This document shows, piece by piece, positions 29,184-62,565 of a stretch of 64,000 nucleotides of DNA. Numbering within the stretch: the stretch's first letter is position 1; each line of letters begins with the position of its first letter. Position numbers and translations under genes: made by a program. The DNA lies in NCBI GenBank assembly GCA_965203355.1, contig OZ241889.1:1088001-1152000 (forward strand). Direction: 5' to 3'. The notes under the pieces are model-generated. The model was not told where the DNA came from and searched no databases. It was given only the letters and a program-made list of their open reading frames with translations. The DNA comes from Candidatus Latescibacterota bacterium. Lineage in GTDB: Bacteria > Latescibacterota > UBA2968 > UBA8231.

Positions 29184-32100
29184 ATGAGTACGCACACGCG
29201 GCTTTTTACCTTTCCTTTTTTGCTGGTTGCCAGTTTGGTGTTGGGCTGGGCCGAGCAGGTCCCGGCTCAGACCGAGAATATCGACATATCCGTTGACCGG
29301 CGTTCCGTCCGCGAGGATGGAGGGGCGCAAGATATTACGATAACCGCCGAATTAAAAGAGGCGAACGCGAAGGCCAAAGTCGATCTTTATCTTCCGCTGC
29401 GTCTTGTCGGTGTCACGTCTCGCTATTTGAACGATTTATTCACCATATCTTTCCCCTCTTTGGTGATTAAGAAGGAAGAGCGCAAGGCGACCGGGACGAT
29501 CACCATAACCCCGACAAACAATGATCGGCTCGGACCTATCCCAGTCACCGCTTCAAAAGATATTGATCCCTTGGCCCTAACGGGTACGGTCGATACAATG
29601 AAGGTTAAAGAGCGGATCAACATTCCTATCGTGATTGATATAGGCGGTTCTACTGGAACCATCGCCTTAAAAGGCAAAACCGGCCCGGACTATACGGAAC
29701 AGGGTAATACTTCTGGTGTCTTCTATATCGAAATTATTGACGACGAGCGGTTGCCCGGAAATATCACCCTTTCTTTTGAGCCGTCCAAGCTCGGCAAGCA
29801 GGCGGGTCCGACTCCGATTAAAGTGACGGCGACGTTGGATGGCGGCGCGTTGACGGACCAAGACCTTGAAACCCAGTTGGTTGTGGTTGAGGGCAAGGGG
29901 GCTACCAGCGATACGTTGGCGCGCGATGTGAATTTCTCGATTAGCGGGCTGGGAAAGCTGACCATTCCGAAGGGGCAGACCGAAGCGACGATGACGATCA
30001 CCGTTGATCCGAGTAATAAGGCGGGCAAGATCGTGCTGGGGGTCAGTGCCAGCGGTGATACGACGCTGCTGGTGAAGTTAAAACGGTTCAACAGCGCGGG
30101 TAAGCAGGTCCGAATCGACATGATTCCCAATGGTACCTTTGATCCCGATGGTTACGTTGTACCCAGTACTAAATCTAACTTTTGGGCGGATAGGTTCCCT
30201 TTTAGTAGTTGGGTCGGAGTGGACTTTGACGGCGATGGGACTGTTGGACCAGACCCAGAGGGTGATGGTCGTTACGGATACGATAACAGTGGTGGTGATG
30301 TAGACGATTCCGGCTTCGTACCTGCGGGGACCGTCTTGGTAGAAAAAGACTTGGGGATCGACTTTTTCTTCGATGACGATTATTTGGATACCTATGTGGT
30401 GCCCGACGGAAAAGTACTAACGGAAGTAGGTCAATGCTTATACGATGAATCGAGTGCTCGTCGTACGCTGTTTCACTGTACAACAATAAGTAATAACGCG
30501 AAAGTCCGACTCGGTATCGACTTTAACGGCAATAGTACCATGTCGACTAGTGGTTATGGTACCGGTAGCATCCTAAAGTATGTGGACTCTTTTGCTATTC
30601 CGCTTAAGATCAAGCCGGGCGTCATCACGGTCGAGGACGTCGCCGTCGCGCAGATCAAGAATTTTACGCTGAGTCCAGCGACGATCCGCGAGGCCGCCGG
30701 AGCGACCGACGTTGCGATGACGGTTGAATTGGAGAAAGCCTTGACCGGCGCGAAGGCGGTGGACTTTCAGATTACGGCCGGTTCTTCCGGGACGCGCGAT
30801 GTGAATTACGAAGTGGAAGTGATTGAAGGCTTGACGATCCCGGCCGGCGACACCAAAGGCACGGCAACGTTGCGCGTCACGCCGGTCGACAACAGCGGTG
30901 TGAATAATCCGTGGACGTTCGAGGTGCAAGCTAAGGTCGGCGATGACGCATCTCAGATGAAGGATGCGCCGTTCGAGATCACGGACGATGAGACGCTGAG
31001 CGATGACATTACGCTGTCGGTCAATCCGAGCGAAATCAAAGAGGACGCCGGGGCAACGACGGTGACGGTTACTGGCACGTTAGACGGCAAAGTGCTCGAC
31101 GCGAATGCGACGATCACGTTGGTCGTGGATCGGACGCCGGACAAGTCGGCGACGCGGGACGTGGATTACACGGCAGCACTTAGCTCGCTGACGATTCCAC
31201 GCGGCGCGATCACCGGCTCGACGACGATCACGATCACGCCGGTCAACGACGGCAAAGACGACAACGACGAGACGATCACGATCAAGCAGTTGACGGACAA
31301 TCTCAAGAACCAAGACGAAGACAAGATCACGGTCAGCACTGCGAAGATCACGCTGAAAGACGCGGCGAAGATGGATGATTCTGGTTCTTCGGATACGCCC
31401 GCGGCCACGGGAGGGCCGAGTTTCGGTGCGGCCGCATTAGCCTTTGAAGCGACGGTAGGTCAGGCGTTCAGCGAGGTGTTGCCGGCGGCGACGGGCGGCC
31501 AAGGAACGCTGCGGTACCGGGTCTCGTCGAGCCTGCCGATGGGGCTGTCGTTTGACGCGGCGACGCGGACGCTTTCCGGGACGCCGACGCTGGCGGGCAT
31601 GGCCTCGGTCGTCTACATGGCGTTCGATGACGCCGACAATGCCCGGGCAAAAACCATCACCATCACCGTCAGCGAGGCCCCGCCGGTCACCGTGGGCGTC
31701 GCCAGCGTGATGGCTTCGCAGTCGGCGGTGCGCGAGAACGGCGACACGGCTGAAATTCGAGTTACGGCGACGCTGTCGGGCGCGGCTCCAGCCACCGAAA
31801 CGGTCCGCTTCACGATTGTGCCGCCGGCCAGCGGCGCGATGGCCACCCGCGACGTGGATTACACGGCGGCGTTGGCCGGGACGATCACCGTTGCGGCTGG
31901 CGAGACGATGGGTTGGACGACGCTTTTCCTGTCGCCGATTGACAACGCTTCGGCGGACGGTCATAAGCACTTGGGTATCCGGGCGGCGGCTTCGGGCGGC
32001 TGGGGACAGGTGGACCTGCGGATTTCCGACGACGAGACGCCGAGCACGTCTCTGGTGCTGTCGGTGACGCCAAGTACGCTCAGCGAGTCGGCGGAATTGA

Positions 32101-33470
32101 CGGAAGTAATGGTCATGGCCGCGCTGGACGGCAAGCCGCTGGCCGAGGATGCCACCGCGACCGTCTCGATTGATGAGGTAGCTTCGAGCGCCCTGCGCGA
32201 CACCGACTACTCGGCACTATTCGATCCGATCATCACCATTGCCGCCGGTTCGATTATGGGTTCGACGCGCCTGTTGGTCGATCCGACAGCCGACGGTATG
32301 GCCGAAGGCGACGAGACGATCATCCTCAACGCGATGCTGCCGGGCTTGACTTCGGGTTCGGCGACACTGGTGCTGACCGACATGGATAGCGGCATGATGG
32401 ACGGCGATGAGGATATGACGATCTCCTTGGCGTTCGTCGAGGGCACTTCGGTCGCCGCACACACCTACACGGCGGGCACGGCGATTACGCCGTTGGTCCT
32501 GCCGATGGCGATGGGCGGCGAGGGCTCCATCACGTACAGCGTGTCGGGGCTGCCAGCGGGGCTGTCGTTTGACGCGGCCACCCGGACGATTTCGGGTACG
32601 CCGGACGCGGCGACCGATGGTGCCGTTGAAGTCACCTACACGGCGACGGCTGGCGCCGAAAGCGTCTCGCTGACGTTCGCGATCACAATCAACGCGATGC
32701 TGGATTTTGTCGACCTCGATTCGTTGTTCGGTCGGTTCAACAGCGGGGCCGGCAAATCGGTGCCGCTGCGGGCCGGGCTGAATGCGGATGCGCGGCTGTA
32801 TCTGGATGCGCCGACAGCCCTGCCGAGCGTAGGCGAAGAGTTCGTCGTCAATGTGCGACTGACCGACTTCGTGGCGGTCAAGGGCTACGGCTTGCAGGTG
32901 GCGTATGACGCCGACCAGCTAACCTTCGTCGAGGCGCGGACCGATCAGCCGCTGGGCGGGAGCGCGTTTGCTACGCCGCAGGTGCTGGCCGATCAGGCTG
33001 GCGTGTTGACGGTAGCCGCCCACGGTGACGTCGTTTCCGACGGCGAGTTGATGTTGCGCTTGGTCTTCCGGCCGACGACCGAGATCGAGCACACGACCCT
33101 CGAAATCACCGACAACCGGACCTGGGACCAGGCGTTGGGCTTCAACCGCTTGGCATTGCCCGCGCCAGTGTCGTTACAGACGCGCCCAGCCGTGTTCTCG
33201 CTGGCAGCCAACTATCCGAACCCGTTCAATCCGCAGACGACGATTCAGTATGCGTTGCCGCAGGCGGTGGACGTGGGGCTGACGGTGTATAACGTGTTGG
33301 GTCAGCCGGTGCGGACGCTGGTCGCCGAGCATCAGGCGGCGGGTCGCTACGCGGTGGAGTGGGACGCGACCAACGACCGCGGCCAGAGCGTGTCGTCGGG
33401 GATGTACTTCTACCGCTTGCAGGCGGGCGGTGATTTCCTCGCGGTCCAGAAGATGCTGCTGCTCAAGTAA
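29184..33470 (+). CDS. large secreted/surface protein: Calx-beta-like repeats, variable DxDGDG domain, two putative Ig (He_PIG-like) domains, cohesin-like domain, FlgD/T9SS-like C-terminal domain
   Basis: signal peptide; repeated ATRDVDY/ITDDE units; LPxGLSFDAATRTxSGTP twice; NYPNPFNPQTTIQY..SGMYFYRL..KMLLLK; AAGGAG RBS. Confidence 0.88.
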   Translation: MSTHTRLFTFPFLLVASLVLGWAEQVPAQTENIDISVDRRSVREDGGAQDITITAELKEANAKAKVDLYLPLRLVGVTSRYLNDLFTISFPSLVIKKEERKATGTITITPTNNDRLGPIPVTASKDIDPLALTGTVDTMKVKERINIPIVIDIGGSTGTIALKGKTGPDYTEQGNTSGVFYIEIIDDERLPGNITLSFEPSKLGKQAGPTPIKVTATLDGGALTDQDLETQLVVVEGKGATSDTLARDVNFSISGLGKLTIPKGQTEATMTITVDPSNKAGKIVLGVSASGDTTLLVKLKRFNSAGKQVRIDMIPNGTFDPDGYVVPSTKSNFWADRFPFSSWVGVDFDGDGTVGPDPEGDGRYGYDNSGGDVDDSGFVPAGTVLVEKDLGIDFFFDDDYLDTYVVPDGKVLTEVGQCLYDESSARRTLFHCTTISNNAKVRLGIDFNGNSTMSTSGYGTGSILKYVDSFAIPLKIKPGVITVEDVAVAQIKNFTLSPATIREAAGATDVAMTVELEKALTGAKAVDFQITAGSSGTRDVNYEVEVIEGLTIPAGDTKGTATLRVTPVDNSGVNNPWTFEVQAKVGDDASQMKDAPFEITDDETLSDDITLSVNPSEIKEDAGATTVTVTGTLDGKVLDANATITLVVDRTPDKSATRDVDYTAALSSLTIPRGAITGSTTITITPVNDGKDDNDETITIKQLTDNLKNQDEDKITVSTAKITLKDAAKMDDSGSSDTPAATGGPSFGAAALAFEATVGQAFSEVLPAATGGQGTLRYRVSSSLPMGLSFDAATRTLSGTPTLAGMASVVYMAFDDADNARAKTITITVSEAPPVTVGVASVMASQSAVRENGDTAEIRVTATLSGAAPATETVRFTIVPPASGAMATRDVDYTAALAGTITVAAGETMGWTTLFLSPIDNASADGHKHLGIRAAASGGWGQVDLRISDDETPSTSLVLSVTPSTLSESAELTEVMVMAALDGKPLAEDATATVSIDEVASSALRDTDYSALFDPIITIAAGSIMGSTRLLVDPTADGMAEGDETIILNAMLPGLTSGSATLVLTDMDSGMMDGDEDMTISLAFVEGTSVAAHTYTAGTAITPLVLPMAMGGEGSITYSVSGLPAGLSFDAATRTISGTPDAATDGAVEVTYTATAGAESVSLTFAITINAMLDFVDLDSLFGRFNSGAGKSVPLRAGLNADARLYLDAPTALPSVGEEFVVNVRLTDFVAVKGYGLQVAYDADQLTFVEARTDQPLGGSAFATPQVLADQAGVLTVAAHGDVVSDGELMLRLVFRPTTEIEHTTLEITDNRTWDQALGFNRLALPAPVSLQTRPAVFSLAANYPNPFNPQTTIQYALPQAVDVGLTVYNVLGQPVRTLVAEHQAAGRYAVEWDATNDRGQSVSSGMYFYRLQAGGDFLAVQKMLLLK

Positions 33471-33499
33471 CACACGCGACACCGCGTACAGCGAGTTAC

Positions 33500-33543
33500 G
33501 GAAATGGGACCCTGATGTTCGGGGTCCCATTTTCTTTTTCTTT
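33500..33543 (+). terminator. intrinsic terminator of locus 1
   Basis: AAATGGGACCC-tgatgttcg-GGGTCCCATTT followed by TCTTTTTCTTT. Confidence 0.8.
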
Positions 33544-33690
33544 ATGAACGTCCGATCGACAGCTTACAGGCCCGCTTGCAGGTCGGCGAAGCGTTCCTCG
33601 CCGTCAAGATGCTGCTACTGCTCAAGTAGCACCCACGACACCGCGAATCACGAAAATGGGACCTCAATTTCTGGGATGTCCATGTCGGCA
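33544..33690 (+). repeat. duplicated 3' end of the surface-protein gene plus degenerate hairpin
   Basis: cgcttgcaggtcggcgaagcgttcctcgccgtcaagatgctgctactgctcaagtag then cacccacgacaccgc..aaatgggacctc. Confidence 0.88.
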
Positions 33691-33796
33691 ACTACCCTGC
33701 ACCGCCAAAGCGGGATTAGACCAAATCATTCGGTCGCGGTGCGTTTTCGGTCGGGCTTGGGGTGCCGGGGTTCAGGCGGAGCCGGGGCGACCCGTT

Positions 33797-33836
33797 CAAC
33801 GGGAGTAAAGCTAAATTTCAAAATGTGCCACTATCT
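33797..33836 (+). repeat. 40-bp direct repeat, right copy
   Basis: CAACGGGAGTAAAGCTAAATTTCAAAATGTGCCACTATCT. Confidence 0.85.
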
Positions 33837-34023
33837 GATTCCGGCCCGCCTCGATCTAGCTTTCGACCCTCGAGTCGCCGCCTTCTTCGGCGTTTTCTTG
33901 GGGCGTACTCACAAGCCGCCGCCGCGTCAGGACGACTAAGAGGAGGCCCGCCGCCTGCCCCAGGCTTCAAAAGAGATGCGCCGGTGAGGCGAGGTTTTCG
34001 CGGAACCTCATAGCGCGATTGCC

Positions 34024-34674
34024 TCAGCGGCTGGCCCAGAGCATGCCGCGCCGCTGGATCTCGCGCGCTTCGGGCACGTCGAAGTCCCGCGCCACGTGAC
34101 CCAGCGACGAGTAGAACACTCGACCCGCTCCCCACCTGCGCTTCCACACCACCGGCATGACGGTTCCGTTCACCCAAGGCGCACTTTGACGCCCTTCTAG
34201 GGTTGTCGTGGCCAGCACCTGATTGCTTGGGTCCGTGTGCATGTAGTACTGTTCGGAGCGCATCTGAAAGTCGTCGAGACCGGCGACAATGGGGTCGTCT
34301 GGGGCCGCGATGTTGACCGCGTAGTCGATGATGCCGTCGGGATGGGCGACAAACTGGCCGCCGACCATGAACTGATAGGTGGTATTGTTGCGGAACGAAT
34401 CGGCCATGCCGCCGTGCCAGCCAGCCACGCCGCTTCCGCGCTCAACGGCCGCGAGCAGCCCTTGCTCCTGCTCGCCTTCGATCTGGCCCATCGTCCACGT
34501 TGGCACCACCAGATCCTGCTCGGCCATGAGATCGCGATCTTTGTAGGTGTCGAGGGTATCCGAAATGGTTACTGCGAACCCTTCTGCTTCTAAAATGGGT
34601 GCGAAAATATCGACGCACTGCTTGGGCTCGTGCCCTTCCCAGCCGCCCCAAACCACGATTGCTTTTTTGCCCAT
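34024..34674 (-). CDS. ThuA domain protein
   Basis: [39 protein letters not shown]. Confidence 0.9.
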
Positions 34675-34689
34675 GACGCTCCTTTTGGG

Positions 34690-35445
34690 TTATCTGGCGC
34701 CGCGCGCCAGCTCGTTGCCAACGAGGTATTGATAGCTTTTTTCTACGGCTTCCATCATGTCGGTCGCACAGCGGTCCAACTCGACGACCAGCCAGTCGCA
34801 GGTGCCGTGGCTGGCCGCGATAATGGACGGGATGTCCATAGTGCCTTCGCCGACGGCGAGCATGTCTTGCGCGGGGTCGCACGGGCCGTCCTTGATGTGC
34901 AAAATCGGCACTCGCTCGCCCAGTTTCTCGACGACCTGCACCGAGTCGCCGCCGCCGGTATTGACCCAATAGGTATCGACCTGAAAGAAGATGGACTCGT
35001 CGAGCGCTTCGACTAAGTACTCGAAGCCCGGACGCCCTTCTACTTCTTGGAACTCCCACCAGTGGTTGTGCAGGCCCAACTCCAAGCCGTTTTCGGCGGC
35101 GATCTCGGCCGCTTGGTTCCAGCGGCTACACAGCGCCTTGAGCGCGTCTGCGCTGGCGAAGGCCTCACGCGGCGTGGAACTCACCACGCGGGTGGCTTCC
35201 AACTCGTGGGCTAGTTTGATGACTTGGTTTTTTTGCTTGCCCAAGGGTAGTTGCGTATGCACGCTGCACACGTCTAACCCGAGATCGGCAAATAGGTCGC
35301 TGGCTTCATCTACACTGATGCCGGGGAATCCAGCCGTCTCAACGCCCACGTACCCTATCTCGGCAATCCGGGTGACCACGGACTTGAAGTTTTGCGCGAG
35401 CGCGTCGCGGACCGTGTAGAGTTGCAGCGCTATGGGGGCAGTCAT
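34690..35445 (-). CDS. sugar phosphate isomerase/epimerase
   Basis: IALQLYTVRD, HNHWWEF, QVDTYW, LHIKDG, VVELD. Confidence 0.9.
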   Translation of the reverse strand: MTAPIALQLYTVRDALAQNFKSVVTRIAEIGYVGVETAGFPGISVDEASDLFADLGLDVCSVHTQLPLGKQKNQVIKLAHELEATRVVSSTPREAFASADALKALCSRWNQAAEIAAENGLELGLHNHWWEFQEVEGRPGFEYLVEALDESIFFQVDTYWVNTGGGDSVQVVEKLGERVPILHIKDGPCDPAQDMLAVGEGTMDIPSIIAASHGTCDWLVVELDRCATDMMEAVEKSYQYLVGNELARGAR

Positions 35446-35660
35446 TGCTTCCTTCCTTGTGGGGTGAGGGATGTGAAAGTTAAAGCGATAGCTAAGGCGG
35501 GCGGGCAAATGGTCAGGCCTCGAGAGGCGATGGGTAACGTTAGATAATTAAATTAAAAAAAAAAACTAAGCGGATGGGCAAATCAATTTCTGATTACACC
35601 GCACTTGTTGCGCCGTTTGTGCGCTCCTACATTAGCCGCTCCAACTAAGGAGCAACGCCA

Positions 35661-36734
35661 ATGAGCATCCAACATAAAGTGCGCCTCGGGTTTATCGGCG
35701 CTGGCTGGTGGGCCACTAGCAACCACATGCCCGTTTTTGCCGCCCGCGACGACGTCGAACTGACGGGCGTGTGCCGATTGGGCCGAGCCGAGCTGGAAAA
35801 GGTGCGCGATCACTTCGGATTCGCGTTTGCCACCGAGGACTACCGCGCGTTATTGGCCCAGTGCGAACTCGACGGAGTAGTAGTGGCCTCGCCGCACCCC
35901 CTGCACTACGAACACGCCCGCGCCGCCTTGGAGGCGGGCCTGCACGTGATGTGCGAAAAGCCGCTGACCACCCGTGCGGCCCATGCGCGCGAATTGGTGC
36001 GCCTCGCGGCCGAGCGGGACCGCCATTTGCTCGTGCCCTACGGCTGGCACCACAAGCCTTTTATCCAGCGGGCCAAGGCGCTGATGGACGAGCAAGCCAT
36101 CGGCGCGGTCGAATTCGCGCTCTGCCACATGGCCTCGCCGATCCGCGCCCTGCTTTCGGGGGCGGAGGTCGATGTCTCCGACATTTCTGGACAGGACAGC
36201 GCCAGCCTCTTTGGCCCCACACCTTCTACGTGGGCCGATCCCGCCATGGCCGACGGCGGCTACGCCCACGCGCAAATATCGCATTCCTCGGGGCTGCTGT
36301 TTTGGCTGTCCGGGTTGCGCGCCGAGCGCGTCTTTGCCGCCATGAGCGCGCCCGGGGCTGAGGTCGAGTTGTACGATGCGCTGACCGTGCGCTTTACTTC
36401 GGGAGCCATCGGCGCGGTCAGCGGCGCGGGCACTGTGCCCACAGACCAGACCTTTCAGGTTGATGTGCGCCTGTTCGGCTCGGAGGGGATGCTGCTCGTT
36501 GATTGCGAACGCGCGCGCATGCACTTGCGCCGCCACGACGGCCAACACGTCGTCGCGGAAGTCGCCGAGGACGCGGGCTCCTACGAGTGCGATGGTCCGC
36601 CCAACAACTTTGCCGACTTGATCTTGGGCAAAACCGACGTGAACTGGACCCCGGGCGAAGCGGCCATGCGCGGGGTGGAGATGCTCGACGCCGCGTACCG
36701 CTCAGCCGCTTCGGGCCAAGAAGAGCAGGTGTAA
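35661..36734 (+). CDS. Gfo/Idh/MocA family oxidoreductase
   Basis: GFIGAG, HVMCEKP. Confidence 0.92.
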   Translation: MSIQHKVRLGFIGAGWWATSNHMPVFAARDDVELTGVCRLGRAELEKVRDHFGFAFATEDYRALLAQCELDGVVVASPHPLHYEHARAALEAGLHVMCEKPLTTRAAHARELVRLAAERDRHLLVPYGWHHKPFIQRAKALMDEQAIGAVEFALCHMASPIRALLSGAEVDVSDISGQDSASLFGPTPSTWADPAMADGGYAHAQISHSSGLLFWLSGLRAERVFAAMSAPGAEVELYDALTVRFTSGAIGAVSGAGTVPTDQTFQVDVRLFGSEGMLLVDCERARMHLRRHDGQHVVAEVAEDAGSYECDGPPNNFADLILGKTDVNWTPGEAAMRGVEMLDAAYRSAASGQEEQV

Positions 36735-36758
36735 CATCGGTCCTTCTCGCCGGCGGTA

Positions 36759-37664
36759 ATGGCCTTTCTGCTCGACGTCATTGCCCCGCTTTTCCTGCTA
36801 ATCGGCTGCGGCTATCTGTTAGGACGGCGGCGCTCTGTTGACCCGGCTTCTTTGGCCGATGTGGCCATTTACATCTGCCTACCCTTCTTGATGTTTGCGG
36901 CGCTGGTGCGCCATCCGGTCACCGGCGCAGCGGCCGTCCAGGCCTTCGCTTGGCAGGTTGGGATGTACGCGGTCAGCATACCCGTCATCGCGCTCGTCGC
37001 GCATCTCGTCGGCTGGGACAAACCCACGCGCAGCGCGGTCACCCTCTCCTTGCCCACGGTCAACATCGCCTCGTATGGCGTGCCTGTGGTGCTCTTCGCA
37101 TTTGGCGACGAGGCCCTGGCGATCGTCATGCTGCTTTTTGTGTACGGCAATGTTATGGCCGCGTCGCTGGGCACCTACATTGCCGCGGGCGGGCGGCAAA
37201 GTCCGCTGCAAGCGTTCAAGAGCATTTTCAGGCTGCCGCTGATTTATGCTGCGGCCTTGGCCTTAGCCATCAATGCCCTCGCCGTGCCGGTCCCGGTTTC
37301 CATGCTCGTCGCCGCCGATCTGATCGGCAAAGCCGGCCCGATCCTCGCTATCATCCTTCTCGGGGTGCAAGTCTCGCACATCCCCCTCCGCGGCCGCCGC
37401 TCGGCGGCTCTGTACGGCGGCATTGGGGCCAAGGTTCTGCTGGGGCCGGCGATTGGCATCGGCCTGACGCTGCTCATCGGGGCGCAAGGTGCGGTGCGCG
37501 ACGTGCTGCTGCTGTGTTCCTGCCTACCTACGGCCATCAACGCCCTCATCCTCACGGTGCGCTTTGACGCGCGCCCTGATCTGCTCGGCGGCATTCTCAT
37601 CGGCTCGACTTTGTGGAGCCCGCTCGGGCTGTCGATGCTGCTCTATTGGATCGGTGGTCAGTAG
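36759..37664 (+). CDS. AEC (auxin efflux carrier) family transporter
   Basis: ~10 TM helices; NIASYGVP, LPTAIN. Confidence 0.85.
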   Translation: MAFLLDVIAPLFLLIGCGYLLGRRRSVDPASLADVAIYICLPFLMFAALVRHPVTGAAAVQAFAWQVGMYAVSIPVIALVAHLVGWDKPTRSAVTLSLPTVNIASYGVPVVLFAFGDEALAIVMLLFVYGNVMAASLGTYIAAGGRQSPLQAFKSIFRLPLIYAAALALAINALAVPVPVSMLVAADLIGKAGPILAIILLGVQVSHIPLRGRRSAALYGGIGAKVLLGPAIGIGLTLLIGAQGAVRDVLLLCSCLPTAINALILTVRFDARPDLLGGILIGSTLWSPLGLSMLLYWIGGQ

Positions 37665-37790
37665 CCAGTGGTCAGTGGTCAGTAGCCAGTGGTCAGTGGT
37701 CAGTGGTCAGTAGCCAGTCCCCCGATCTCTTCTGGGGGTGGATTGGGACAGGCCACCGGCCAGTGGTCACTGACCACTGAAGGCCACTGA
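37653..37790. repeat. heptamer array with inverted arm
   Basis: ~9 CAGTGGT/CAGTAGC units followed by cactgaccactgaaggccactga. Confidence 0.85.
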
Positions 37791-37896
37791 CGAAAAAATT
37801 TTCGCATCCCCTTGACACTGTTTTACGCCCTCTCGTTTCTAGATTTATAGGGCACACGACAGGCTCCACGACGCTTTTAAGAGCGCCTACAGGAGA

Positions 37897-38052: not shown

Positions 38053-38084
38053 GGCTCGCCTTTGCGAGAAACTCAACATGGCAA

Positions 38085-38125
38085 GAGGCCGCGGCGCGAA
38101 AGACAATGCGCTGCGGCCTTTTTTT
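38085..38125 (+). terminator. intrinsic terminator
   Basis: AGGCCGCGGCGC-gaaagacaat-GCGCTGCGGCCT-TTTTTT. Confidence 0.8.
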
Positions 38126-41111: not shown

Positions 41112-41194
41112 GGCGGGGATGTGGCGGCCTTGTCGTGCCGAGAAATGAGTGTGGCACAACATACAAGCCCTTTTTGCGCCGCCAACGCATCTAA

Positions 41195-41337
41195 GAAGCG
41201 TTTTTAAAATTCTCGTTGGACTCCTTCAACGGGCCGTCGAGAGGTTCCTGGAGCGGGCGTTTTCCACGGGCGAGATTCCATTGCTACTAGGCTTTTTGGG
41301 GTTCAAAAAACAATAAGAATAATTTTAAAAAGGCTTC
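41195..41337. mobile_element. MITE
   Basis: same TIRs and TAA flanks as 17215-17358. Confidence 0.85.
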
Positions 41338-41340
41338 TAA

Positions 41341-41453
41341 GAAGCGTTTTTAAAACTCTCGTCGCCCGCTGCAAAGGCGGTCGGGCGTTTTCCGCGGGCG
41401 ATAGATTGTTTTATTAACGCAAAGGGCCATAAGAGGAATCTTAAAAACGCTTC
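41341..41453. mobile_element. MITE, second subtype, tandem to the previous copy
   Basis: GAAGCGTTTTTAA..TTAAAAACGCTTC; shares the TAA at 41338-41340. Confidence 0.85.
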
Positions 41454-41529
41454 TAAAACCTTGTGTCCATGGCCCGCGTCGCGTCGTGCGGTTTTGAGAG
41501 CGACCGCAAAATGCAGATATTGTACCGCC

Positions 41530-49700: not shown

Positions 49701-49703
49701 CCC

Positions 49704-53791: not shown

Positions 53792-54022
53792 GTGTTGTTC
53801 CTCCTCGTTATTGGAACCATCGCGCTTTAGGCGTCCGAATATCAGTCGGTGGTCGTCGCCATACGGACGCCGCCTCTAGGCCCTGCAAACTGCAAGTAGG
53901 TCGCCAACGGGTCTGGGGATGCAAGGGTGGGCATTTCACTCGACGATCATGGGGTGATCTGCGCGTACAGGGCAACAGTAGCGCGACGCTCCGCCCCTGT
54001 CAACCGGCTCTGCCGCAGCATC

Positions 54023-54051
54023 TTGACAATACAGTTGGGGGATTCTATTTT
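54023..54051 (+). promoter_or_regulatory. tRNA promoter
   Basis: TTGACA-N17-TATTTT. Confidence 0.6.
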
Positions 54052-54077
54052 TTGGGACTGAGCTGAAAACAAATTTT

Positions 54078-54153
54078 GGCCCGTTCGTCTAGAGGCCTAG
54101 GACGCCGGCCTCTCACGCCGGTAACACGGGTTCGAATCCCGTACGGGCTACCA
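54078..54153 (+). tRNA. tRNA-Glu (CTC)
   Basis: GGCCCGT acceptor stem, CCGGC-ctCTCac-GCCGG anticodon arm, GGTTCGAATCC T-arm, encoded CCA. Confidence 0.96.
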
Positions 54154-54384
54154 ATTATTTTCCCCAGGTTGGCTACGCTGACTTGGGGTTTTCTTTTGCC
54201 AGTCCGCTAGGCCGCCGCGACTTATGGAAGACGACGCTAGCTCAGCATCCGCATTTGATTTCGGTCCCGGACTGGGCCTTGTCGCCAGCGGTAGCGTTTC
54301 CACCAGTCGAGTCCGCCGATTAATTCGCGCACGAGTAGGCGACAGGCGGGCGTTATGCCGTGTGAAACGCAGGCCCACCCGCTC

Positions 54385-55140
54385 TCAACCTCGCCCGACA
54401 AACGGCATTTTCGTCGCCATGATGGTCATAAACAGCACATTGGTGTCCAGCGGCAGTTCGGCCATCTGCACGACGGCGCGGGCCACGTGGGCGACTTCAA
54501 AGCGCGGCTCGACGAGCTTGGAGCCATCGGCCTGCGGTACGCCATCGCTCATCCGCTGCGTCATATCGGTCGCTGCGTTGCCAATGTCGATCTGGCCGCA
54601 GGCAATGTCGTATTTGCGTCCGTCGAGCGAGGTCGATTTGGTGAGTCCGGTAATGGCGTGTTTGGTGGCGGTATAAGGGGCGGAATTGGGTCGCGGGGCC
54701 GCGGCTGAGACCGAGCCGTTGTTGATGATCCGCCCGCCGCGAGGGGCTTGATCCTTCATAAGGCGGAAGGCCGCTTGAGTGCAGAGGAAGGGGCCCGTCA
54801 GGTTGACGGCGACGACCTTCTGCCACTGCTCGTATGCGAGATCTTCCAACAGCACGGCTGGTGCTCCGGCCCCGGCGTTGTTGAACAGCACGTCGAGCCG
54901 GCCAAAGTGCTCGGCGACTTGGGCGAACAGCGCGTCAACGGCTTGGGGATCGCCGACGTCGGTGGGCACCGGCAACATGCGGGCATCCGTTCCCGCTAGC
55001 GCGGCCGTTTCCGCTAGGGCCGCTCGCCGCCGGCCCGCTAGGGCAACCGCATAGCCAGCCTCGGCCAAGGCCAAGGCACTGTGGCGACCGATGCCGCTGC
55101 CGGCCCCGGTGACGAGGGCGACTTTTGTACGCGCTTTCAT
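54385..55140 (-). CDS. SDR family oxidoreductase
   Basis: [17 protein letters not shown]. Confidence 0.93.
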
Positions 55141-55174
55141 TTTTCATCTCCTTGAATTTGAAGGGTGGCTCTAA

Positions 55175-55300
55175 GAAGCGTTTTTAAGATTCCTCTTATG
55201 GCCCTTTGCGTTAAAAAAGAACCTAGTAGCAATGGAGTCTCGCCCGCGGAAAACGCCCGACCGCTTTTGCCGTGCTCGACGAGAATTTTAAAAAGGCTTC
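55175..55300. mobile_element. MITE, inverted relative to 41341-41453
   Basis: same TIRs and TAA flanks; right end overlaps the glcB stop codon. Confidence 0.85.
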
Positions 55301-57486
55301 TAAGCGGTTCGTCGGGTGGCTTTTGCCTCTCGCCGCCGCTTGTGCAACACGTTTTCCGTGTATCCGTTCGGCTCGGTGCGCCCGTTGAATACCAAGTCCA
55401 GTGCTGCTTGGAATTCGACGCTGGTGTCGAGGTTGGGTGCCATAGGGCAGTACGCGGGGTCGCCGCTGTTTTGCGCATCTACTACGGTTGCCATGCGAGC
55501 AAAGGTCGCCCGCACCTGCGCTTCGTTAGTGATCCCGTGGTGCAACCAGTTGGCGATGTGCTGGCTGGAAATTCGCAAGGTGGCGCGGTCTTCCATTAGG
55601 CCGATGTGGTTGATGTCCGGCACCTTGGAGCAGCCAATGCCCTGGCCGACCCAACGCACCACGTAGCCTAAAATGCCCTGGGCGTTGTTGTCTAACTCTC
55701 GCTGAATTTCCGCGGGGCTGAGCGGGTGATCGAGCACTGGCGGGCTGAGGATCGCGCCGAGTGAGGCCCGCGCTCGTCCGGCTAGCTGGCCGAGGCGGTC
55801 GAAGACATTGACTTGGTGGTAGTGCAGCGCGTGCAGGGTGGCGGCCGTGGGCGAGGGGACCCAAGCCGTTGTCGCGCCAGCTTGGGGGTGGCCGATTTTG
55901 GTCTCTACCATGTCGCGCATTCGCTCTGGCATGGTCCACATTCCCTTGCCGATCTGCGCTCGTCCCACTAAGCCGGTTGCCATGCCAATATCGACATTCC
56001 AGTCTTCATAGGCGCTGAGCCAAGGTTGATCTTTGATTTTTAGCTTGGGCAACATGGGGCCGAGCTCCATGCTGGTGTGGATCTCGGCGCCAGTGCGGTC
56101 GAGAAAGCCCGTGTTGATGAAGACGACGCGTTCGGCAGCGCAGCGGATGCACTCGCTGAGATTGACCGTGGTGCGGCGCTCTTCGTCCATGATGCCGATT
56201 TTTAGCGTATTGTGCGCCAGCCCGAGCGCCGCTTCCACTCGCGTGAAAAGCTCGACGGTCGCGGCGACTTCGTCCGGCCCGTGCTGTTTGGGTTTTACCA
56301 CATAGACGCTGCCGATCTTGCTGTTGCGGTAGCGGCCGCGGCCCTTGAGGTCGTGGATCGCCGCTAAGCTGATGACCATGGCGTCGAGAAACCCCTCGGG
56401 GATTTCCGCGCCGTCGGCCGTGGTCACCGCGTCTGTGTACATGTGGATGCCAACGTGGCGCACGAGCAACAAGCTGCGTCCGGGCAGGGTCAAGGTGTGG
56501 CCGTTGGGGGTGGTAAAGGTGCGGTCGGCGCACAAGCGGCGCGTCCGGGTCTGCCCGTCCTTGACAAAGGTTGCCTCCAGTGTGCCCTGCATTAGGCCGT
56601 TCCAGTTGCCATAGACGAGGACTTTGTCCTCGGCATCGACCGCCGCCACGGAATCCTCGCAATCTTGGATGGTGGTAATGGCCGCTTCTAAGAGCACGTC
56701 TTTGACGCCAGCGGGGTGCGTGCGTCCAATGGGATGGCTGCGGTCGATTTGGATTTCGATGTGCAATCCGTTATGGCGGAGCAAGACGCTGCTCAGTGGG
56801 CTGCTCTCGCATCCATAGCCGACGAATTGCCCGGCGTCTTTGAGGCCGACTTCGGCGCCGCTTGCGAGGCGGGCGCGCAAGGTTTGTCCGCCAGCGTCCT
56901 CGCGCAGGAAAAACGCCACCACTTCCCGGTGCGATCCTTGTTGGAGGCTGGCGACCGCGTCGAGAAACGCCTCGCTGCGTGCGATGACTTGGGCACCGCG
57001 CTCGGCGTCGTACTCTGCGCTCGCCGCGCCGGGTATCACATCCGTGCCGTACAGGGCGTCGTACAAGCTACCCCAGCGCGCATTTGCCGCGTTGAGCGCG
57101 TAGCGCGCATTGTCCACTGGGACGACTAGCTGGGGGCCGGCTAGAGCGGCGATTTCCGGGTCGGTGTTTTCCGTGCGGATCGGCTGGGCGTCGCCCGTGG
57201 GCAGCAAGTAGCCGATTTCTTGGAGAAAGGCCCGGTAATTTGTGGGGTCTAACGGCTGGCCGCGCCGCTGTTGGTGATAGGCGTCGATCTGGGCCTGCAA
57301 GGCGTCGCGCCGCTGAAGTAGCTTTCGATTCTTTGGCCCCAAGTCTTGGATGATCTTCTCCAGCGCCGCCCAGAAGTGATCGACATCCACGTCCGTCCCG
57401 GGTGCGATTTGCTCGGCGACGAGGGCGTATAGCCGTTGATCAATGTGTAGTCCGCCGCGGACGATTTTTCTTGTTTGTTCTGCCAT
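55300..57486 (-). CDS. glcB: malate synthase G
   Basis: [52 protein letters not shown]. Confidence 0.96.
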
Positions 57487-57744
57487 GATTTGCTCCGTTT
57501 AATTTTGCCGAGCAAGAGTATAACTATCTTGCGGCGTGTGCAACCAGTGGGCAGGATTGGCTAGCTTGTAGGCGCGAGCGCATGACAACGCTATCGCAGG
57601 AGGCGACCATGCCAACGCACCTTTGACTGCGAGCCGGAGGTCCTCGCATCGAAAATCAGCTCGGGGCGTCGGATGGCTTTGACGCGGAGGAAGGCTTGGC
57701 GGCGAGACAATATGGATGGGTATGTGCGTTGAATGGTCGGCGGG

Positions 57745-58260
57745 GACACGGACGTTAATCCCAGAACATCGGGGTCCCATTTTCGTAACTCGCGGTGTCG
57801 TGGGTGCTACTTGAGCAGTAGCATCTTCTGCACGGCGAGGAAATCGCCGCCCGCTTGCAAGCGGGCCGGTAGGCGGGCGATCTGAACGTTCATAAGGAAA
57901 AGAAAATGGGACCCCAGGAAACTGAGGTCCCATTTCCGTAACTTGCGGTGTCGTGGGTTTTACTTGAGCAGCAGCATCTTCTGGACGGCGAGGAACGCTT
58001 CGCCGACCTGCAAGCGGGCCTGTAAGCTGTCGATCGGACGTTCATAAGAAAATGGGACCCCAGAACATCGGGGTCCCATTTCCGTGCCTTGCGGTGTCGT
58101 GGATGTTACTTGAGCAGCAGCATCTTCTGGACGGCGAGGAACGCTTCGCCGACCTGCAAGCGGGCCGTAGGCTGTCGATCTGACGTTCACAAGGAAAAGA
58201 AAATGGGACCTCAAACCGAAAATTGAGGTCCCATTTTCGTGCCTTGCGGTGTCGTGGGTG
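57745..58260 (-). repeat. tandem array of ~150-bp units (gene 3' end + terminator hairpin + linker)
   Basis: stop-codon copies at 57807, 57960 and 58106 versus the gene stop at 58261; periods 153, 146 and 155 bp. Confidence 0.92.
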
Positions 58261-61200
58261 CTACTTGAGCAGCAGCATCTTCTGGACGGCGAGGAAATCG
58301 CCGCCCGCTTGCAAGCGGTAGAAATACATCCCCGACGACACGCTCTGGCCGCTGTCGTTGGTCGCGTCCCATTCCACCGCGTAGCGACCGGCACTCTGAT
58401 GCTCGGCGACCAGCGTCCGCACTGGCTGACCCAACACGTTATATACGGTCAGTGCCACGTCCGCCGCTTGCGGCAACGCATACTGAATCGTCGTCTGCGG
58501 GTTGAACGGGTTCGGATAGTTGGTCGCCAGCGAGAACACGGCCGGGCGCGTCTGCACCGACACCGGCGCGGGCAAGGCCAGCCGGTTGAAGCCCAATGCC
58601 TGGTCCCAGGTCCGGTTGTCGGTGATTTCGAGGGTCGTGTGCTCGATCTCGGTCGTCGGCCGGAAGACCAAGCGCAACATCAACTCGCCGTCGGCAACGA
58701 CGTCGCCGTGCGTGGCCACCGTCAACACGCCCGCTTCGGCCAGCACCTGCGGCGTAGCGAATGCGCTCCCACCCAGCGGCTGATCGGTCTGCGCCTCAAC
58801 GAAGGTCAACTGATCGGCGTCATAGGCTATCTGCAAGCCGTAGCCCTTGACCGCCACGAAGTCGGCCAGTCGCACATTAACGACGAAATCCTCTCCCACG
58901 CTCGGCAGGGCTGTCGGCGCATCCAGATACAGCCGCGCATCCGCATTCAGCCCGGCCTGCAACGCCACCGGCTTACCAGCTCCGCTGTTGAACCGACCGA
59001 ACAACGAATCGAGGTCGACGAAATCCAGCATCGCGTTGATTGTAATTGTGAACCTCAGCGAGACGCTTTCGGCGCCAGCCGTTGCCGTGTAGGTGACTTC
59101 AACGGCCCCATCGGTCGCCGCGTCCGGTGTGCCCGAAATCGTCCGGGTCGCCGCGTCAAACGACAGCCCCGCTGGCAGACCCGACACGCTATACGTGATG
59201 GAACCTTCGTCGCCCATCGCCATCGGCAGGACCAGCGGCGTAATCGCCGTGCCCTCCGTGTAGGTGTGTGCGGCGACCGAAGTGCCCTCGACGAAAGCCA
59301 AGGAGCTCGTCGTATCCTCATCGCCATCCATATCGCCGTCCATCATGCCGCTATCCATGTCGGTCAGCACGAGTGTCGCCGAACCCGCTGTCAAGCCCGG
59401 CAGCATCGCGTTGAGGATGATCGTCTCGTCGCCCTCGGCCATGCTGTCGGCTGTCGGATCAACCAACAGGCGCGTCGAACCCATAATCGAACCGGCCGCA
59501 ATGGTAATCGTCGGATCGAACAGGGCCGAGTAGTCCGTGTCGCGCAGGGCACTCGAAGCCGCCTCATCAATCGCGACGGTCGCCGTGGCATCTTCGGCCA
59601 ACGGCTTGCCGTCCAGTGCGGCCATGACCATCACTTCCGTCAATTCCGCTGACTCGCTGAGCGCGCTCGGCGTCACCGACAGCACCAAAGACGTGCTCGG
59701 CGTTTCATCGTCGGAAATCCGCAAGTCCACCTGCCCCCAACCGCCCGAAGCCGCCGCCCGAATACCCAAGAACTTATGACCGTCCGCCGAAGCGTTGTCA
59801 ATCGGCGACAGGAAAAGCGTCGTCCAACCCGCCTTTTCCCCGGCCGCAATGGTGATCGTCCCGGCTAACGCCGCCGTGTAATCCACGTCGCGAGTGGCCA
59901 TCGCGCCGCTGGCCGGCGGCACAATCGTGAAGCGGACCGTCTCGGTCGCCGGTGCCGCGCCCGACAAGGTCGCCGTAACCCGGATTTCGGTCGTCTCGCC
60001 ATTTTCGCGCACGGCCGACTGCGAAGCCATCACGCTGGCGACGCCCACGGTGACCGGCGCGGCCTCGCTGATGGTGATGGTGATGGTTTTTGCCCGGGCA
60101 TTGTCGGCGTCATCAAACGCCATATAGACGACCGAGGCCATGCCTGCCAGCGTCGGCGTCCCGGAAAGCGTCCGCGTCGCCGCGTCAAACGACAGCCCCA
60201 TCGGCAGGCTCGACGAGACCCGGTACCGCAGCGTTCCTTGGCCGCCCGTCGCCGCCGGCAACACCTCGCTGAACGCCTGACCTACCGTCGCTTCAAAGGC
60301 TAATGCGGCCGCACCGAAACTCGGCCCTCCCGTGGCCGCGGGCGTATCCGAAGAACCAGAATCATCCATCTTCGCCGCGTCTTTCAGCGTGATCTTCGCA
60401 GTGCTGACCGTGATCTTGTCTTCGTCTTGGTTCTTGAGATTGTCCGTCAACTGCTTGATCGTGATCGTCTCGTCGTTGTCGGCGGTCCCATCGTTGACCG
60501 GCGTGATCGTGATCGTCGTTGAGCCGGTGATCGCGCCGCGTGGAATCGTCAGCGAGCTAAGCGCTGCCGTGTAATCCACGTCCCGCGTCGCCGACTTGTC
60601 CGGCGTCCGATCCACGACCAACGTGATCGTCGCATTCGCGTCGAGCACTTTGCCGTTTAACGTGCCCGTCACCGTGACCGTCGTTGCTCCGGCGTCCTCT
60701 TTGATTTCGCTCGGATTGACCGACAGCGTAATGTCATCGCTCAGCGTCTCATCGTCCGTGATCTCGAACGGCGCATCCTTCATCTGAGATGCGTCATCGC
60801 CGACTTTCGCTTGCACCGTGAACGTCCACGGATTATTCACACCGCTGTTGTCGACCGGCGTGACGCGCAGCATGGCCGTGCCTTTGGTGTCGCCGGCCGG
60901 GATCGTCAAGCCTTCAATCACCTCCACTTCGTAATTCACATCGCGCGTCCCGGAAGAACCCGGTGTAATCTGGAAGTCCACCGCCTTCGCGCCGGTCAAG
61001 GCTTTTTCCAATTCAACTGTCATCGCAACGTCGGTCGCGCCAGCGGCCTCGCGGATCGTCGCCGGACTCAGCGTAAAATTCTTGATCTGCGCGACGGCGA
61101 CGTCCTCGACCGTGATGGTGGCGGGGCTGAACTTAATGGCGGCAGAGACAAAAGAGTCCGCATACTTTAAGGTGGTCAACGCATCACTGAAGTCACCATC

Positions 61201-62565
61201 GCCGTTAAAGTCGATACCAAGAAAGAGGGCCTTTCTATTAGCCCAAGGACGCTGCGTGTCCGTTTTATGGAAAAGGTAAGGACCTATATCCGTTAATACG
61301 CTATCGGCGGGCACCACATAGGTATCCAAAAAATCGTCATCCCCGAAAAAGTCGATCCCCAAGTCTTTTTCTACCAAGACGGTCCCCCCAGGTGCGAAGT
61401 CGGCGTCTCTAAAATGAAAACTGCCGTTAAGGTCAATCCCAACAATTCCATCGTCCTCACTCGGTGGGTTTGTTCCAATAGTCCCATCGCCGTCGAAGTC
61501 CACTCCGAGTGACACTTTATCCGCGTTTGTGCGCCTCTCAGGTAATGCGGCGTCGCCTGGGGCGAAGCTCCCACCATCGGCTTCAAAGGTACCATCAGGA
61601 CCATAGTCGATCCGGACTTGCTTACCCGCGCTATTCATCCGTTTTGATATTATCTTCACCGTCGCCCCCCCACTGGCCCCCAGCACGATCTTGCCCGCCT
61701 TATTACCCGGATCGACGGTGATCGTCGTCGTCGCTTCGATCTGCCCCTTCGGAATGGTCAGCTTCCCCAAGCCCCTAATCGAGAAATCCACATCGCGCGC
61801 CAACGTATCGCTGGTAGCCCCCTTGCCCTCAACAACAACCAGTTGAGTTTCAAAGTCGCGGCTCGTCCACTCGCTGTTAGCCCACGCCGCCGTCACTTTG
61901 ATCGGAGTCGCACCCGCCTGCTTGCTGAGCTTGGAAGGCGAAAAAGACAGGTTGATCTGGGGGACGAACTGATCGTCGTCAAGCAGCTCAATATAGAAGA
62001 CGCCAGTAACATTACCAGTCTCAGTATAGGCCGGGGTGGTTTGGCCTTTGAGGGCAATGTTGCCAGTAGAACCCCCTACATCAATAACGATAGGAATATT
62101 AAGCGTCTTGAGAACCGCCGCTGTATCGACCGTACCCGTTATGGCCACGATAGCAACATCATCAATATCCTTTGAAACGGTGCCGCTACTCGGCGTGCTC
62201 GGTGTGCTCGGCGCGATAGGGCCGCTCCAAGCATTGTCTTTCGGGGTTATGGTGATAGTCCCGGTGGCCTTGCGCTCATCCTTCTTAATCACCAAAGAGG
62301 GGAAGGATATGGTGAATAAATCGTTGAGATAGCGGGCGGTGACACCAACGAGACTCAGCGGAAGATAAAGATCGACCTCCGCCTTCGCGTCCGCGTCGCG
62401 TAATTCGGCTGTTATCGTAATATCTTGCGCTCCCCCATCCTCGCGGACGGAACGCCGGTCCAAGGATATGTCGATGTCCTCGGTCTGAGCCGGGGCTTCC
62501 CCCGCCAACATTAAACTGGCAATAAGCAAACAAGGAAAGGTAAAAAGCCGCGTGTGCTTAATCAT
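58261..62565 (-). CDS. large secreted/surface protein, paralog of 29184-33470 (1434 aa)
   Basis: same architecture; start MIKHTRLFTF at 62565 with AAGGAG RBS, matching copy 1. Confidence 0.88.
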   Translation of the reverse strand: MIKHTRLFTFPCLLIASLMLAGEAPAQTEDIDISLDRRSVREDGGAQDITITAELRDADAKAEVDLYLPLSLVGVTARYLNDLFTISFPSLVIKKDERKATGTITITPKDNAWSGPIAPSTPSTPSSGTVSKDIDDVAIVAITGTVDTAAVLKTLNIPIVIDVGGSTGNIALKGQTTPAYTETGNVTGVFYIELLDDDQFVPQINLSFSPSKLSKQAGATPIKVTAAWANSEWTSRDFETQLVVVEGKGATSDTLARDVDFSIRGLGKLTIPKGQIEATTTITVDPGNKAGKIVLGASGGATVKIISKRMNSAGKQVRIDYGPDGTFEADGGSFAPGDAALPERRTNADKVSLGVDFDGDGTIGTNPPSEDDGIVGIDLNGSFHFRDADFAPGGTVLVEKDLGIDFFGDDDFLDTYVVPADSVLTDIGPYLFHKTDTQRPWANRKALFLGIDFNGDGDFSDALTTLKYADSFVSAAIKFSPATITVEDVAVAQIKNFTLSPATIREAAGATDVAMTVELEKALTGAKAVDFQITPGSSGTRDVNYEVEVIEGLTIPAGDTKGTAMLRVTPVDNSGVNNPWTFTVQAKVGDDASQMKDAPFEITDDETLSDDITLSVNPSEIKEDAGATTVTVTGTLNGKVLDANATITLVVDRTPDKSATRDVDYTAALSSLTIPRGAITGSTTITITPVNDGTADNDETITIKQLTDNLKNQDEDKITVSTAKITLKDAAKMDDSGSSDTPAATGGPSFGAAALAFEATVGQAFSEVLPAATGGQGTLRYRVSSSLPMGLSFDAATRTLSGTPTLAGMASVVYMAFDDADNARAKTITITISEAAPVTVGVASVMASQSAVRENGETTEIRVTATLSGAAPATETVRFTIVPPASGAMATRDVDYTAALAGTITIAAGEKAGWTTLFLSPIDNASADGHKFLGIRAAASGGWGQVDLRISDDETPSTSLVLSVTPSALSESAELTEVMVMAALDGKPLAEDATATVAIDEAASSALRDTDYSALFDPTITIAAGSIMGSTRLLVDPTADSMAEGDETIILNAMLPGLTAGSATLVLTDMDSGMMDGDMDGDEDTTSSLAFVEGTSVAAHTYTEGTAITPLVLPMAMGDEGSITYSVSGLPAGLSFDAATRTISGTPDAATDGAVEVTYTATAGAESVSLRFTITINAMLDFVDLDSLFGRFNSGAGKPVALQAGLNADARLYLDAPTALPSVGEDFVVNVRLADFVAVKGYGLQIAYDADQLTFVEAQTDQPLGGSAFATPQVLAEAGVLTVATHGDVVADGELMLRLVFRPTTEIEHTTLEITDNRTWDQALGFNRLALPAPVSVQTRPAVFSLATNYPNPFNPQTTIQYALPQAADVALTVYNVLGQPVRTLVAEHQSAGRYAVEWDATNDSGQSVSSGMYFYRLQAGGDFLAVQKMLLLK

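Follow-up and report, generated by a model that had tools for sequence, protein, structure and literature searches.

Repertoires of variable surface proteins are textbook biology of pathogens. We know of hardly any in uncultured environmental or symbiotic phyla and of none among the cargo of type IX secretion systems (T9SS). Here, we describe a family of giant fibre-like proteins from a Candidatus Latescibacterota bacterium, centered on 64,000 nucleotides of contig OZ241889.1 (positions 1,088,001 to 1,152,000; hereafter the window). Two genes in the window, A and B, each encode a protein of about 1430 residues that carries a highly variable domain on a nearly constant stalk. The fibre system is a new domain family inside a known kind, the variable surface-protein repertoire. 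We suggest, with a probability of roughly 0.6, that the variable module provides a repertoire of recognition surfaces renewed by selection and module swapping, with a poly-C tract upstream of the genes possibly setting expression. The observations of an initial annotation of the window were confirmed. Its interpretation as a Ca2+-scaffolded binding tip with diversified loops, possibly shuffled at conserved anchors, was partly supported.

Several described systems share features with the fibres. Targets of diversity-generating retroelements (DGRs) such as Mtd and TvpA likewise combine a stable scaffold with few hypervariable positions or loops for ligand recognition. The hallmarks of DGRs are a reverse transcriptase, a template repeat, adenine-specific changes and targets of the C-type-lectin fold, whereas the searches reported below recovered no reverse transcriptase, template repeat, adenine restriction or C-type-lectin fold match. 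Ca2+-dependent repeat adhesins of the Marinomonas ice-binding type are single RTX proteins secreted by the type I route. Such adhesins resemble the fibres in being long rods of beta-sandwich domains that are rich in Ca2+ motifs and bear ligand-binding modules, putative ones in the fibres, close to their distal end, but differ from them in that the proteins described here follow the T9SS route, form a paralogue repertoire and carry an undescribed distal module. Among the giant T9SS adhesins of Bacteroidota, we know of no description of near-identical stalks with swapped heads. Examples are SprB and RemA of Flavobacterium johnsoniae. Such proteins are, in the account of PMC8986121, very large repetitive surface adhesins with a T9SS C-terminal sorting domain, like the fibres. 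No homology to the variable domain was seen in them, and the phylum here is Latescibacterota.

Wolbachia WSP is, by analogy, the nearest match in evolutionary behavior, and the fibre family falls within none of the families tried. As described in PMC2843615, WSP has four hypervariable stretches alternating with conserved ones, is subject to recombinational shuffling and positive selection, and is carried by an organism that is not a vertebrate pathogen. WSP is, by the same description, a single-copy eight-strand outer-membrane beta-barrel with diversity between strains (PMC2843615), whereas here a soluble domain without a fold match sits on a T9SS fibre of 1400-1900 aa, with about 16 paralogues in one genome. 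Sponge aggregation factors, too, are portrayed as extracellular proteins with many Calx-beta domains and polymorphic hotspots (PMC5400394). They are animal genes with Wreath and VWA/VWD domains in that portrayal, and the likeness is one of description for which no homology is claimed. Many Latescibacterota live in sponges according to PMC12993501. Should the bacterium of the window likewise be housed by an animal, its fibres might, in the improbable receptor version of our proposal given below, engage or mimic the polymorphic Calx-beta recognition proteins of that host.

Architecture and range of the fibre family

From the N-terminus onward, the fibres consist of a putative signal peptide, two Calx-beta-like sandwiches and the variable domain of about 185 aa, followed by a Calx-beta/He_PIG stalk, then a cohesin-like module and, at the end, a T9SS sorting domain of type A (Table 1). 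Read directly from the sequences of A and B, the N-terminus is hydrophobic and followed by PAQ. The head of A was modelled by AlphaFold2 (AF2) at moderate quality, with a predicted local distance difference test (pLDDT) score of 71.7. Its best Foldseek matches are the tandem Ca2+-binding Calx-beta domains (CBD12) of NCX1 and CALX (E 1e-6 to 7e-6, TM 0.37-0.48), including NCX1 CBD12 3us9 (E 9.9e-7, TMq 0.41) and 8sgt (TMq 0.48). The head model has the Calx-beta (PF03160) fold. Sequence scores for this family, among them 20.9 bits in the stalk, are 17.6-20.9 bits, below the cut-off of 27. The stalk has two He_PIG matches in Pfam (E 1e-20 to 3e-20). The cohesin (PF00963) match is a lead only, scoring 19.5 bits against a cut-off of 24.1 (E 0.0012), and the module reaches E 0.064 against NagJ cohesin chains. 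At the C-terminus, TIGR04183 finds a type-A T9SS sorting domain with 33.5 bits in A and 35.3 bits in B, above its cut-off of 23, and PF18962 yields 25.1 and 27.0 bits, respectively, against a cut-off of 27. The PorU sortase is found in a related genome (G001) with 621 bits against a cut-off of 420.

From these domain matches, we infer surface display by the T9SS as fibre-like proteins. The proteins would be exported by Sec, pass through the T9SS and become attached at their C-terminus. Type-A sorting domains have been linked to anionic lipopolysaccharide in the account given by PMC9143113, so the N-terminal third should point outward, distal to the cell.

The variable domain could be modelled with high scores (pLDDT 90.2, predicted template modelling score 0.86; AlphaFold2 with a 28-row alignment) and has sparse regular secondary structure, with loops modelled at pLDDT 77-97. 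The domain is outside every described family tried, as the initial annotation had supposed, although the absent fold match is no proof of a new fold. Pfam at E<=10 returned no family for the domain of A and only GEVED (E 0.86) for that of B, and NCBIfam returned no known family. PDB sequences gave no hits at E<=1. Foldseek against PDB found no matches at E <= 0.001 (best E 0.99), and VIA-align against 48,161 chains reached at best Z 2.0 with a root-mean-square deviation of 3.6 over 54 aligned residues. The best results were E 0.61 among BFVD viral structures and a score of 0.87 with low recognition in the ESM Atlas. EF-hand, dockerin, thrombospondin (TSP) type 3 and FG-GAP/VCBS were considered and rejected, as the domain lacks a profile match to any of them and only short DxNGDGD stretches match.

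Conservation within the domain is concentrated in acidic positions. Twelve residues are invariant (D17, D52, L90, E92, L95, G96, D98, D102, D104, L106, D107 and D151), eight of which are Asp or Glu. All 28 known domains contain one to four strict Dx[DN]xDG motifs, with conserved positions at about 17, 52 and 150. Dx[DN]xDG is described as a Ca2+-binding motif in at least 12 families (PMC3123361). The acidic framework probably holds Ca2+ and would present four loops that vary in sequence and length. Cysteines are absent from 15 of the 28 domains and number exactly two in the other 13, as would suit disulfides of a protein outside the cytoplasm. A pair is placed inside loop 3, between loop 1 and the end of loop 3, or between positions 20 and 50. 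This pairing suggests that loops 1 and 3 touch and lends indirect support to an arrangement of the loops on one face. The domain offers a new Ca2+-motif scaffold for structural study.

The initial annotation treated A and B as a pair, but they are only two of 16 paralogues with the variable domain on one 4.17-Mb contig. A homologue search with residues 1-490 as query kept 116 proteins among 7996 scored candidates. The variable-domain profile matches 28 of 117 collected proteins over its full length and none of the remaining 89. The 28 carriers comprise 16 proteins whose contig has the same length as that of the window, 4,171,184 bp, and 12 from three related contigs. In a collection of species-representative genomes, the domain was found in one record, the Candidatus Latescibacterota chromosome OZ220478.1 (4.52 Mb), at 11 dispersed loci. 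A profile search across this whole genome (G001) recovered 13 full matches (E <= 2e-70), a shorter one and partial matches in three long open reading frames (ORFs). One of the full matches lies in L028 (G001:C1:1454500-1460000, minus strand), the sole truncated copy seen, whose gene of 651 aa is cut short in the stalk while head and variable domain remain intact. The profile retrieved 24 hits from 1.84 billion representative proteins. Two of these span the whole domain and are paralogues from the genome of the window, and the other 22 are short DxNGDGD stretches in unrelated repeat proteins. None of 598 pattern matches in JGI metagenome contigs encodes a relative. The family is lineage-restricted, and members of a small clade within the Latescibacterota carry about 16 of its genes per genome. 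In the library searched, no publication was found that contains both 'Latescibacter' and 'T9SS' or that describes such a family.

Seven of the 16 paralogues reach 1868-1943 aa because about 450 aa are inserted in front of the cohesin-like module. The insert was noted in P0006, P0009-P0013, P0015, P0017 and P0019 at about aa 1190-1640. It holds a third He_PIG and a duplicated DFDDFFVLADxFG segment without a Pfam match to the segment, which we take to resemble a dockerin pair. Judging from its place beside the cohesin-like module (32800-33100 in the window), the insert might link fibres to one another.

Variation, selection and exchange between copies

Variation along the fibres is strongly uneven. 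Mean column entropy among the 16 paralogues falls from 1.51 bits in the variable domain and 1.10 in the first Calx-beta region to 0.33 along the stalk and 0.08 at the sorting domain. Peaks of 2.1-2.25 bits occur in three 20-residue bins (aa 321-340, 361-380 and 421-440 of A), and a milder patch at aa 121-180 reaches 1.3-1.8 bits. Both the contrast of conserved framework and hypervariable loops on a constant stalk and the milder patch had been proposed from A and B, where the quoted anchors are indeed present. Loops 1 to 4 span 17-33, 3-32, 11-37 and 8-22 residues, respectively. The median terminal branch length is 0.4 for the variable domain and 0.036 for the stalk. P0005 and P0006 share 93% of residues in their heads and 90% in their stalks, but 23% in their loops. 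The AT-richness of the loops, also noted initially, extends to synonymous sites: G+C at third codon positions (GC3) is lowest in the loops (0.42) and rises through anchors (0.52), head (0.57) and stalk (0.78) to the sorting domain (0.84). Taken singly, A has a GC3 of 0.39 in its loops and 0.80 in its stalk, B one of 0.49 and 0.79, and 18 neighboring genes average 0.76.

The comparison of A and B follows the same pattern. Amino acid identity is 74% over aa 1-300, with synonymous (dS) and nonsynonymous (dN) divergence of 0.30 and 0.167, and 54% over aa 301-477, where indels leave 161 alignable codons (dS 0.45, dN 0.38). The C-terminal part of about 950 aa (aa 478-1428) is near-identical, as had been noted, with 95.4% amino acid and 93.7% nucleotide identity (dS 0.20, dN 0.024). 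Since dS remains of the same order along the gene and dN varies 16-fold, the contrast does not merely reflect a young, converted C-terminus.

Selection on the loops was assessed by fixing their boundaries on protein A (domain positions 29-48, 61-81, 122-148 and 157-168) and then counting changes between paralogues of the related genome. Between L002 and L003, the youngest pair for which DNA could be compared, nonsynonymous to synonymous changes number 28:1 in the loops (90 codons), 2:1 in the head (273 codons) and 50:64 in the stalk. The loops differ from the stalk (Fisher p = 9e-8) and exceed neutrality (omega>1, binomial p = 0.0085). The alignment is not in question because a single four-codon indel separates the two genes. 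No second copy of the main (loop-1) patch of L002 or L003 exists in the G001 genome, which excludes an internal donor, and the near absence of synonymous change makes an old loop that escaped gene conversion unlikely. In five pairs whose loops are unsaturated (dS 0.22-0.29), loop omega is 1.45-2.7 versus 0.25-0.33 in the stalk. L027 and L007 differ by 54 nonsynonymous and 6 synonymous loop changes. Three pairs summed yield a raw loop omega of 2.2 (p = 4.6e-4), the pairs not being strictly independent. In young pairs, positive selection has acted on the loops and diversified them beyond drift, which supports the diversified loops of the initial annotation. The first route of loop renewal is such selection on point changes and indels.

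Relaxed constraint alone could produce some of these patterns. The variable domain would then be a Ca2+-stiffened spacer with functionless drifting loops, and the family would be large for structural or dosage reasons. A loop omega of about 1 across the whole tree, frequent indels with wide loop-length ranges, and the low GC3 of the loops, which fits unconstrained sequence under AT-biased mutation, are all in line with such drift. However, the loop ratios of 28:1 and 54:6 in young pairs are significantly above the neutral ratio, and differences per nucleotide between L002 and L003 reach 0.107 in loops versus 0.004 in the head. Drift is also at odds with the high pLDDT of the loops, cysteines that are always paired and the presence of only one truncated copy, L028. 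We consider drift alone unlikely.

A localized mutational mechanism other than a DGR could also target the loops, so that the excess of changes would reflect mutation supply as well as selection. Between L002 and L003, changes are about 30 times as dense in the loops as in the head and an identical run of 991 nt lies downstream; several loop codons carry two changes, and loop GC3 is far below the rest of the gene. Yet, the loop changes comprise all twelve base-change types, fall mostly on codon positions 1-2 and show no base preference or adenine specificity. Hypermutation should raise synonymous changes, but only one was found in 57.5 synonymous loop sites. The Pfam scan of the 38 window ORFs revealed no reverse transcriptase, and no template copy of the patch was found. 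Such a mechanism is very improbable as an explanation. A DGR specifically was rejected on the grounds that the 38 ORFs scanned include no reverse transcriptase, that the loops have no repeat or template, and that changes are not adenine-specific.

Exchange between copies is evident at the scale of the whole module. The domain tree and the stalk tree conflict at strongly supported branches. In sliding identity, P0005 is a mosaic in which a variable domain resembling that of P0013 stands between a head (90-100% identity) and a stalk that both resemble P0006. In P0009, the head resembles P0007, the domain P0008 and the stalk P0012. These mosaics break at about aa 293 and aa 470-484, positions that coincide with the conserved flanks of the module. 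Recombination at anchors, as initially proposed, hence holds for these flanks (P0005 and P0009). Shuffling at the internal anchors is only hinted at by loops within one protein that differ in their nearest relative. Identical stalk runs of 336 nt between A and B and of 991 nt between L002 and L003 were reached in none of 2000 permutations, which identifies them as gene-conversion tracts. Modules are thus swapped between backbones and stalks are homogenized. Whole-module swaps by homologous recombination at the conserved flanks are the second route of loop renewal, and the stalk is kept near-uniform by purifying selection together with gene conversion between copies. A and B form inverted repeats, so that crossing over within the stalk would flip the intervening 25 kb and swap the stalk ends harmlessly. 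Silent donor cassettes of the vls, pilS or tprK type were considered and rejected, with no extra domain fragment in the window and each loop-1 patch occurring once in G001. Exchange runs between full-length paralogues.

Several observations weigh against a repertoire of recognition surfaces. Tree-wide parsimony yields omega of 1.09 for loops and 0.89 for the anchor class, as expected from neutral drift with alignment noise. The case for positive selection consists of few young pairs that are not fully independent. The loops of A and B are saturated (dS 1.36, omega 0.63), so the pair in the window says nothing about selection, and the other 14 paralogues of this genome were compared at the protein level only. 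The domain is not terminal as the proposed tip would imply, but lies third from the N-terminus, between Calx-beta-like domains 2 and 3, with two such domains ahead of it. Finally, exact-match contigs of the variable parts of A are present in runs of three studies among Logan contigs, which are short and mix paralogues. The A allele is therefore stable across studies without change on short time scales, and the diversity resides among the paralogues instead of being generated within each cell line. One run labelled as a sponge metagenome contained a fraction of 0.05 of the words sought, and no habitat is claimed for the organism.

The most likely use of the recognition surfaces would be binding, with partners that differ from copy to copy, for example host, particle or glycan ligands. 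A stronger version of this proposal likens the family to a germline repertoire receptor, in which about 16 'V-like' Ca2+-scaffolded modules of a new fold carry fast-renewed loops akin to complementarity-determining regions, are reassorted on constant stalks and are expressed in subsets switched by poly-C. We consider this version improbable. Within it, a localized process may add to selection in loop renewal. The family is a clean natural example of a confidently modelled domain without a detectable relative or fold match, in which four loops bear the marks of an arms race on a homogenized stalk. The fibres also provide a handle on what Latescibacterota must recognize or evade.

The leader and its poly-C tract

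Homology between A and B extends well upstream of the coding sequence. It starts at a sigma-70-like TTGACA-18-TAGGAT (28598-28627), and a promoter and hairpin scan placed three terminator-like hairpins within the roughly 560 nt behind the promoter-like site. The leaders of A and B share 92% mean column identity, above that of the coding head, and the leader is recognizable before 9 of 11 paralogues of the related genome (L001 and L004-L011). All of these upstream regions contain a poly-C tract within conserved flanks, with 15, 18, 16, 21, 13, 12, 14, 16 and 19 C compared to 14 in A and 13 in B. The only two runs of at least 12 C in the window are those upstream of A and B. A hypermutable simple repeat associated with a gene is one feature of a phase-variable contingency locus, and in sequence the poly-C leader has this anatomy. 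A role of the hypermutable tract in choosing which copies are expressed is speculative. An upstream ORF running through the poly-C was dropped, as its ATG is present in A and B and missing from related copies.

Repetitive sequence also accompanies the leaders. A heptamer repeat, CAGTGGT / ACTGACC, occurs in intergenic arrays at 14576-14787 (about 30 copies), 28947-28990 (6 copies), 37654-37718 (8 copies) and 62763-62796 (5 copies), and two of the four precede genes A and B by about 200 nt. The leader motif AAGTCRTTAAAAAACA...TTA with poly-C is found in two other Latescibacteria genomes upstream of unrelated ORFs resembling secreted proteins or lipoproteins (Table 1). The motif may represent a phylum-wide control element for surface proteins. 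The occurrence of poly-C in the leader and also before other secreted proteins of the phylum makes the tract a testable candidate for phase variation.

Poly-C tracts raise the question of evasion instead of binding. As dominant surface structures, the fibres could be recognized by phages, grazers or a host, and loop changes together with poly-C switching of copies would let the cell escape, a case of classic antigenic or phase variation. The signature is that of variable antigens, for which PMC2843615 on Wolbachia WSP describes hypervariable stretches between conserved regions, recombination and positive selection. A homopolymer of differing length (12-21 C) in a conserved leader of 11 out of 13 genes examined and the many intact copies per genome point in the same direction. 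Variation in tract length within a population was not seen, which contigs cannot show and cross-mapping of paralogues obscures. With about 350-400 nt between it and the start codon downstream, the tract is in neither a promoter spacer nor the coding frame. The lack of silent cassettes in the window and in G001 and the identical A allele across runs of three studies also argue against evasion. We hold evasion as a possible but doubtful function, and retain recognition of binding partners as the preferred one.

Genes A and B in the window

Genes A and B are convergent and 25 kb apart. The duplicated block (28598-33675 versus 63166-58059) has 87% identity over 5176 columns and includes about 590 nt 5' of each start codon. 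The ORF of gene A was confirmed. On the minus strand, the ORF of gene B spans 62787-58261, and the start that provides a putative signal peptide is at 62565. The domain start of 30040 given in the initial annotation is one base out of frame and is corrected in Table 1.

Table 1. Coordinates of the fibre genes, their parts and associated leader elements. Positions refer to the window unless a contig is named.
Feature	Position	Strand	Basis or remark
Gene A (protein P0001)	29184-33470	+	1428 aa; ORF list and translation
Head of A, aa 29-295: two Calx-beta-like sandwiches, variable patch at aa ~121-180	29268-30068	+	AF2 model, Foldseek, entropy
Variable Dx[DN]xDG-rich domain of A, aa 296-483	30069-30632	+	Profile, entropy, AlphaFold2 model
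Loop L1 of A domain	30153-30212	+	
Loop L2 of A domain	30249-30311	+	
Loop L3 of A domain	30432-30512	+	
Loop L4 of A domain	30537-30572	+	
Constant stalk of A, aa 484-1340: Calx-beta-like repeats, two He_PIG, cohesin-like module at aa ~1210-1310	30633-33203	+	
Type-A T9SS C-terminal sorting domain of A and stop codon	33204-33470	+	TIGR04183
Gene B (protein P0003), architecture as A	58261-62565	-	1434 aa
Sorting domain of B	58261-58527	-	
Stalk of B	58528-61107	-	
Variable domain of B, aa 304-486	61108-61656	-	Profile
Head of B	61657-62487	-	
Conserved 5' region of gene A	28598-29183	+	A/B homology begins exactly at 28598
Poly-C tract in leader of gene A	28814-28827	+	14 C
Conserved 5' region of gene B	62566-63166	-	
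Poly-C tract in leader of gene B	62924-62936	-	13 C
(CAGTGGT)x5 in 5' region of gene B	62763-62796	-	
Leader motif with poly-C, L024 (OY282352.1)	3973-4005	-	13 C
Leader motif with poly-C, L025 (OY730476.1)	5406-5438	-	24 C

The neighbors of A and B are ordinary chromosomal genes. A Pfam scan of the 38 ORFs in the window identified ThuA, a GFO/IDH oxidoreductase, DUF5916/CBM9, GH26, a Na/H exchanger, malate synthase G, RND efflux, HisRS and a sulfatase. Next to gene B, a 146-bp tandem repeat (57760-58296, 3.6 copies, 84% matches) repeats the last codons of the gene and sequence beyond it, and an exact 18-aa copy of the C-terminus of the protein is encoded at 57810-57863 on the minus strand. 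A short intergenic repeat has 91% identity over 151 nt between 17211-17361 and 41191-41340, and recurs in inverted orientation with 81% identity over 132 nt between 41337-41454 and 55304-55174. The stretch at 18476-23000 is lower in G+C, with 0.49-0.50 at 19001-20000 and 22001-23000. Its ORFs encode a DNA methylase-like protein (18476-19903), a sulfatase and a 371-aa product without a Pfam match (21859-22974).

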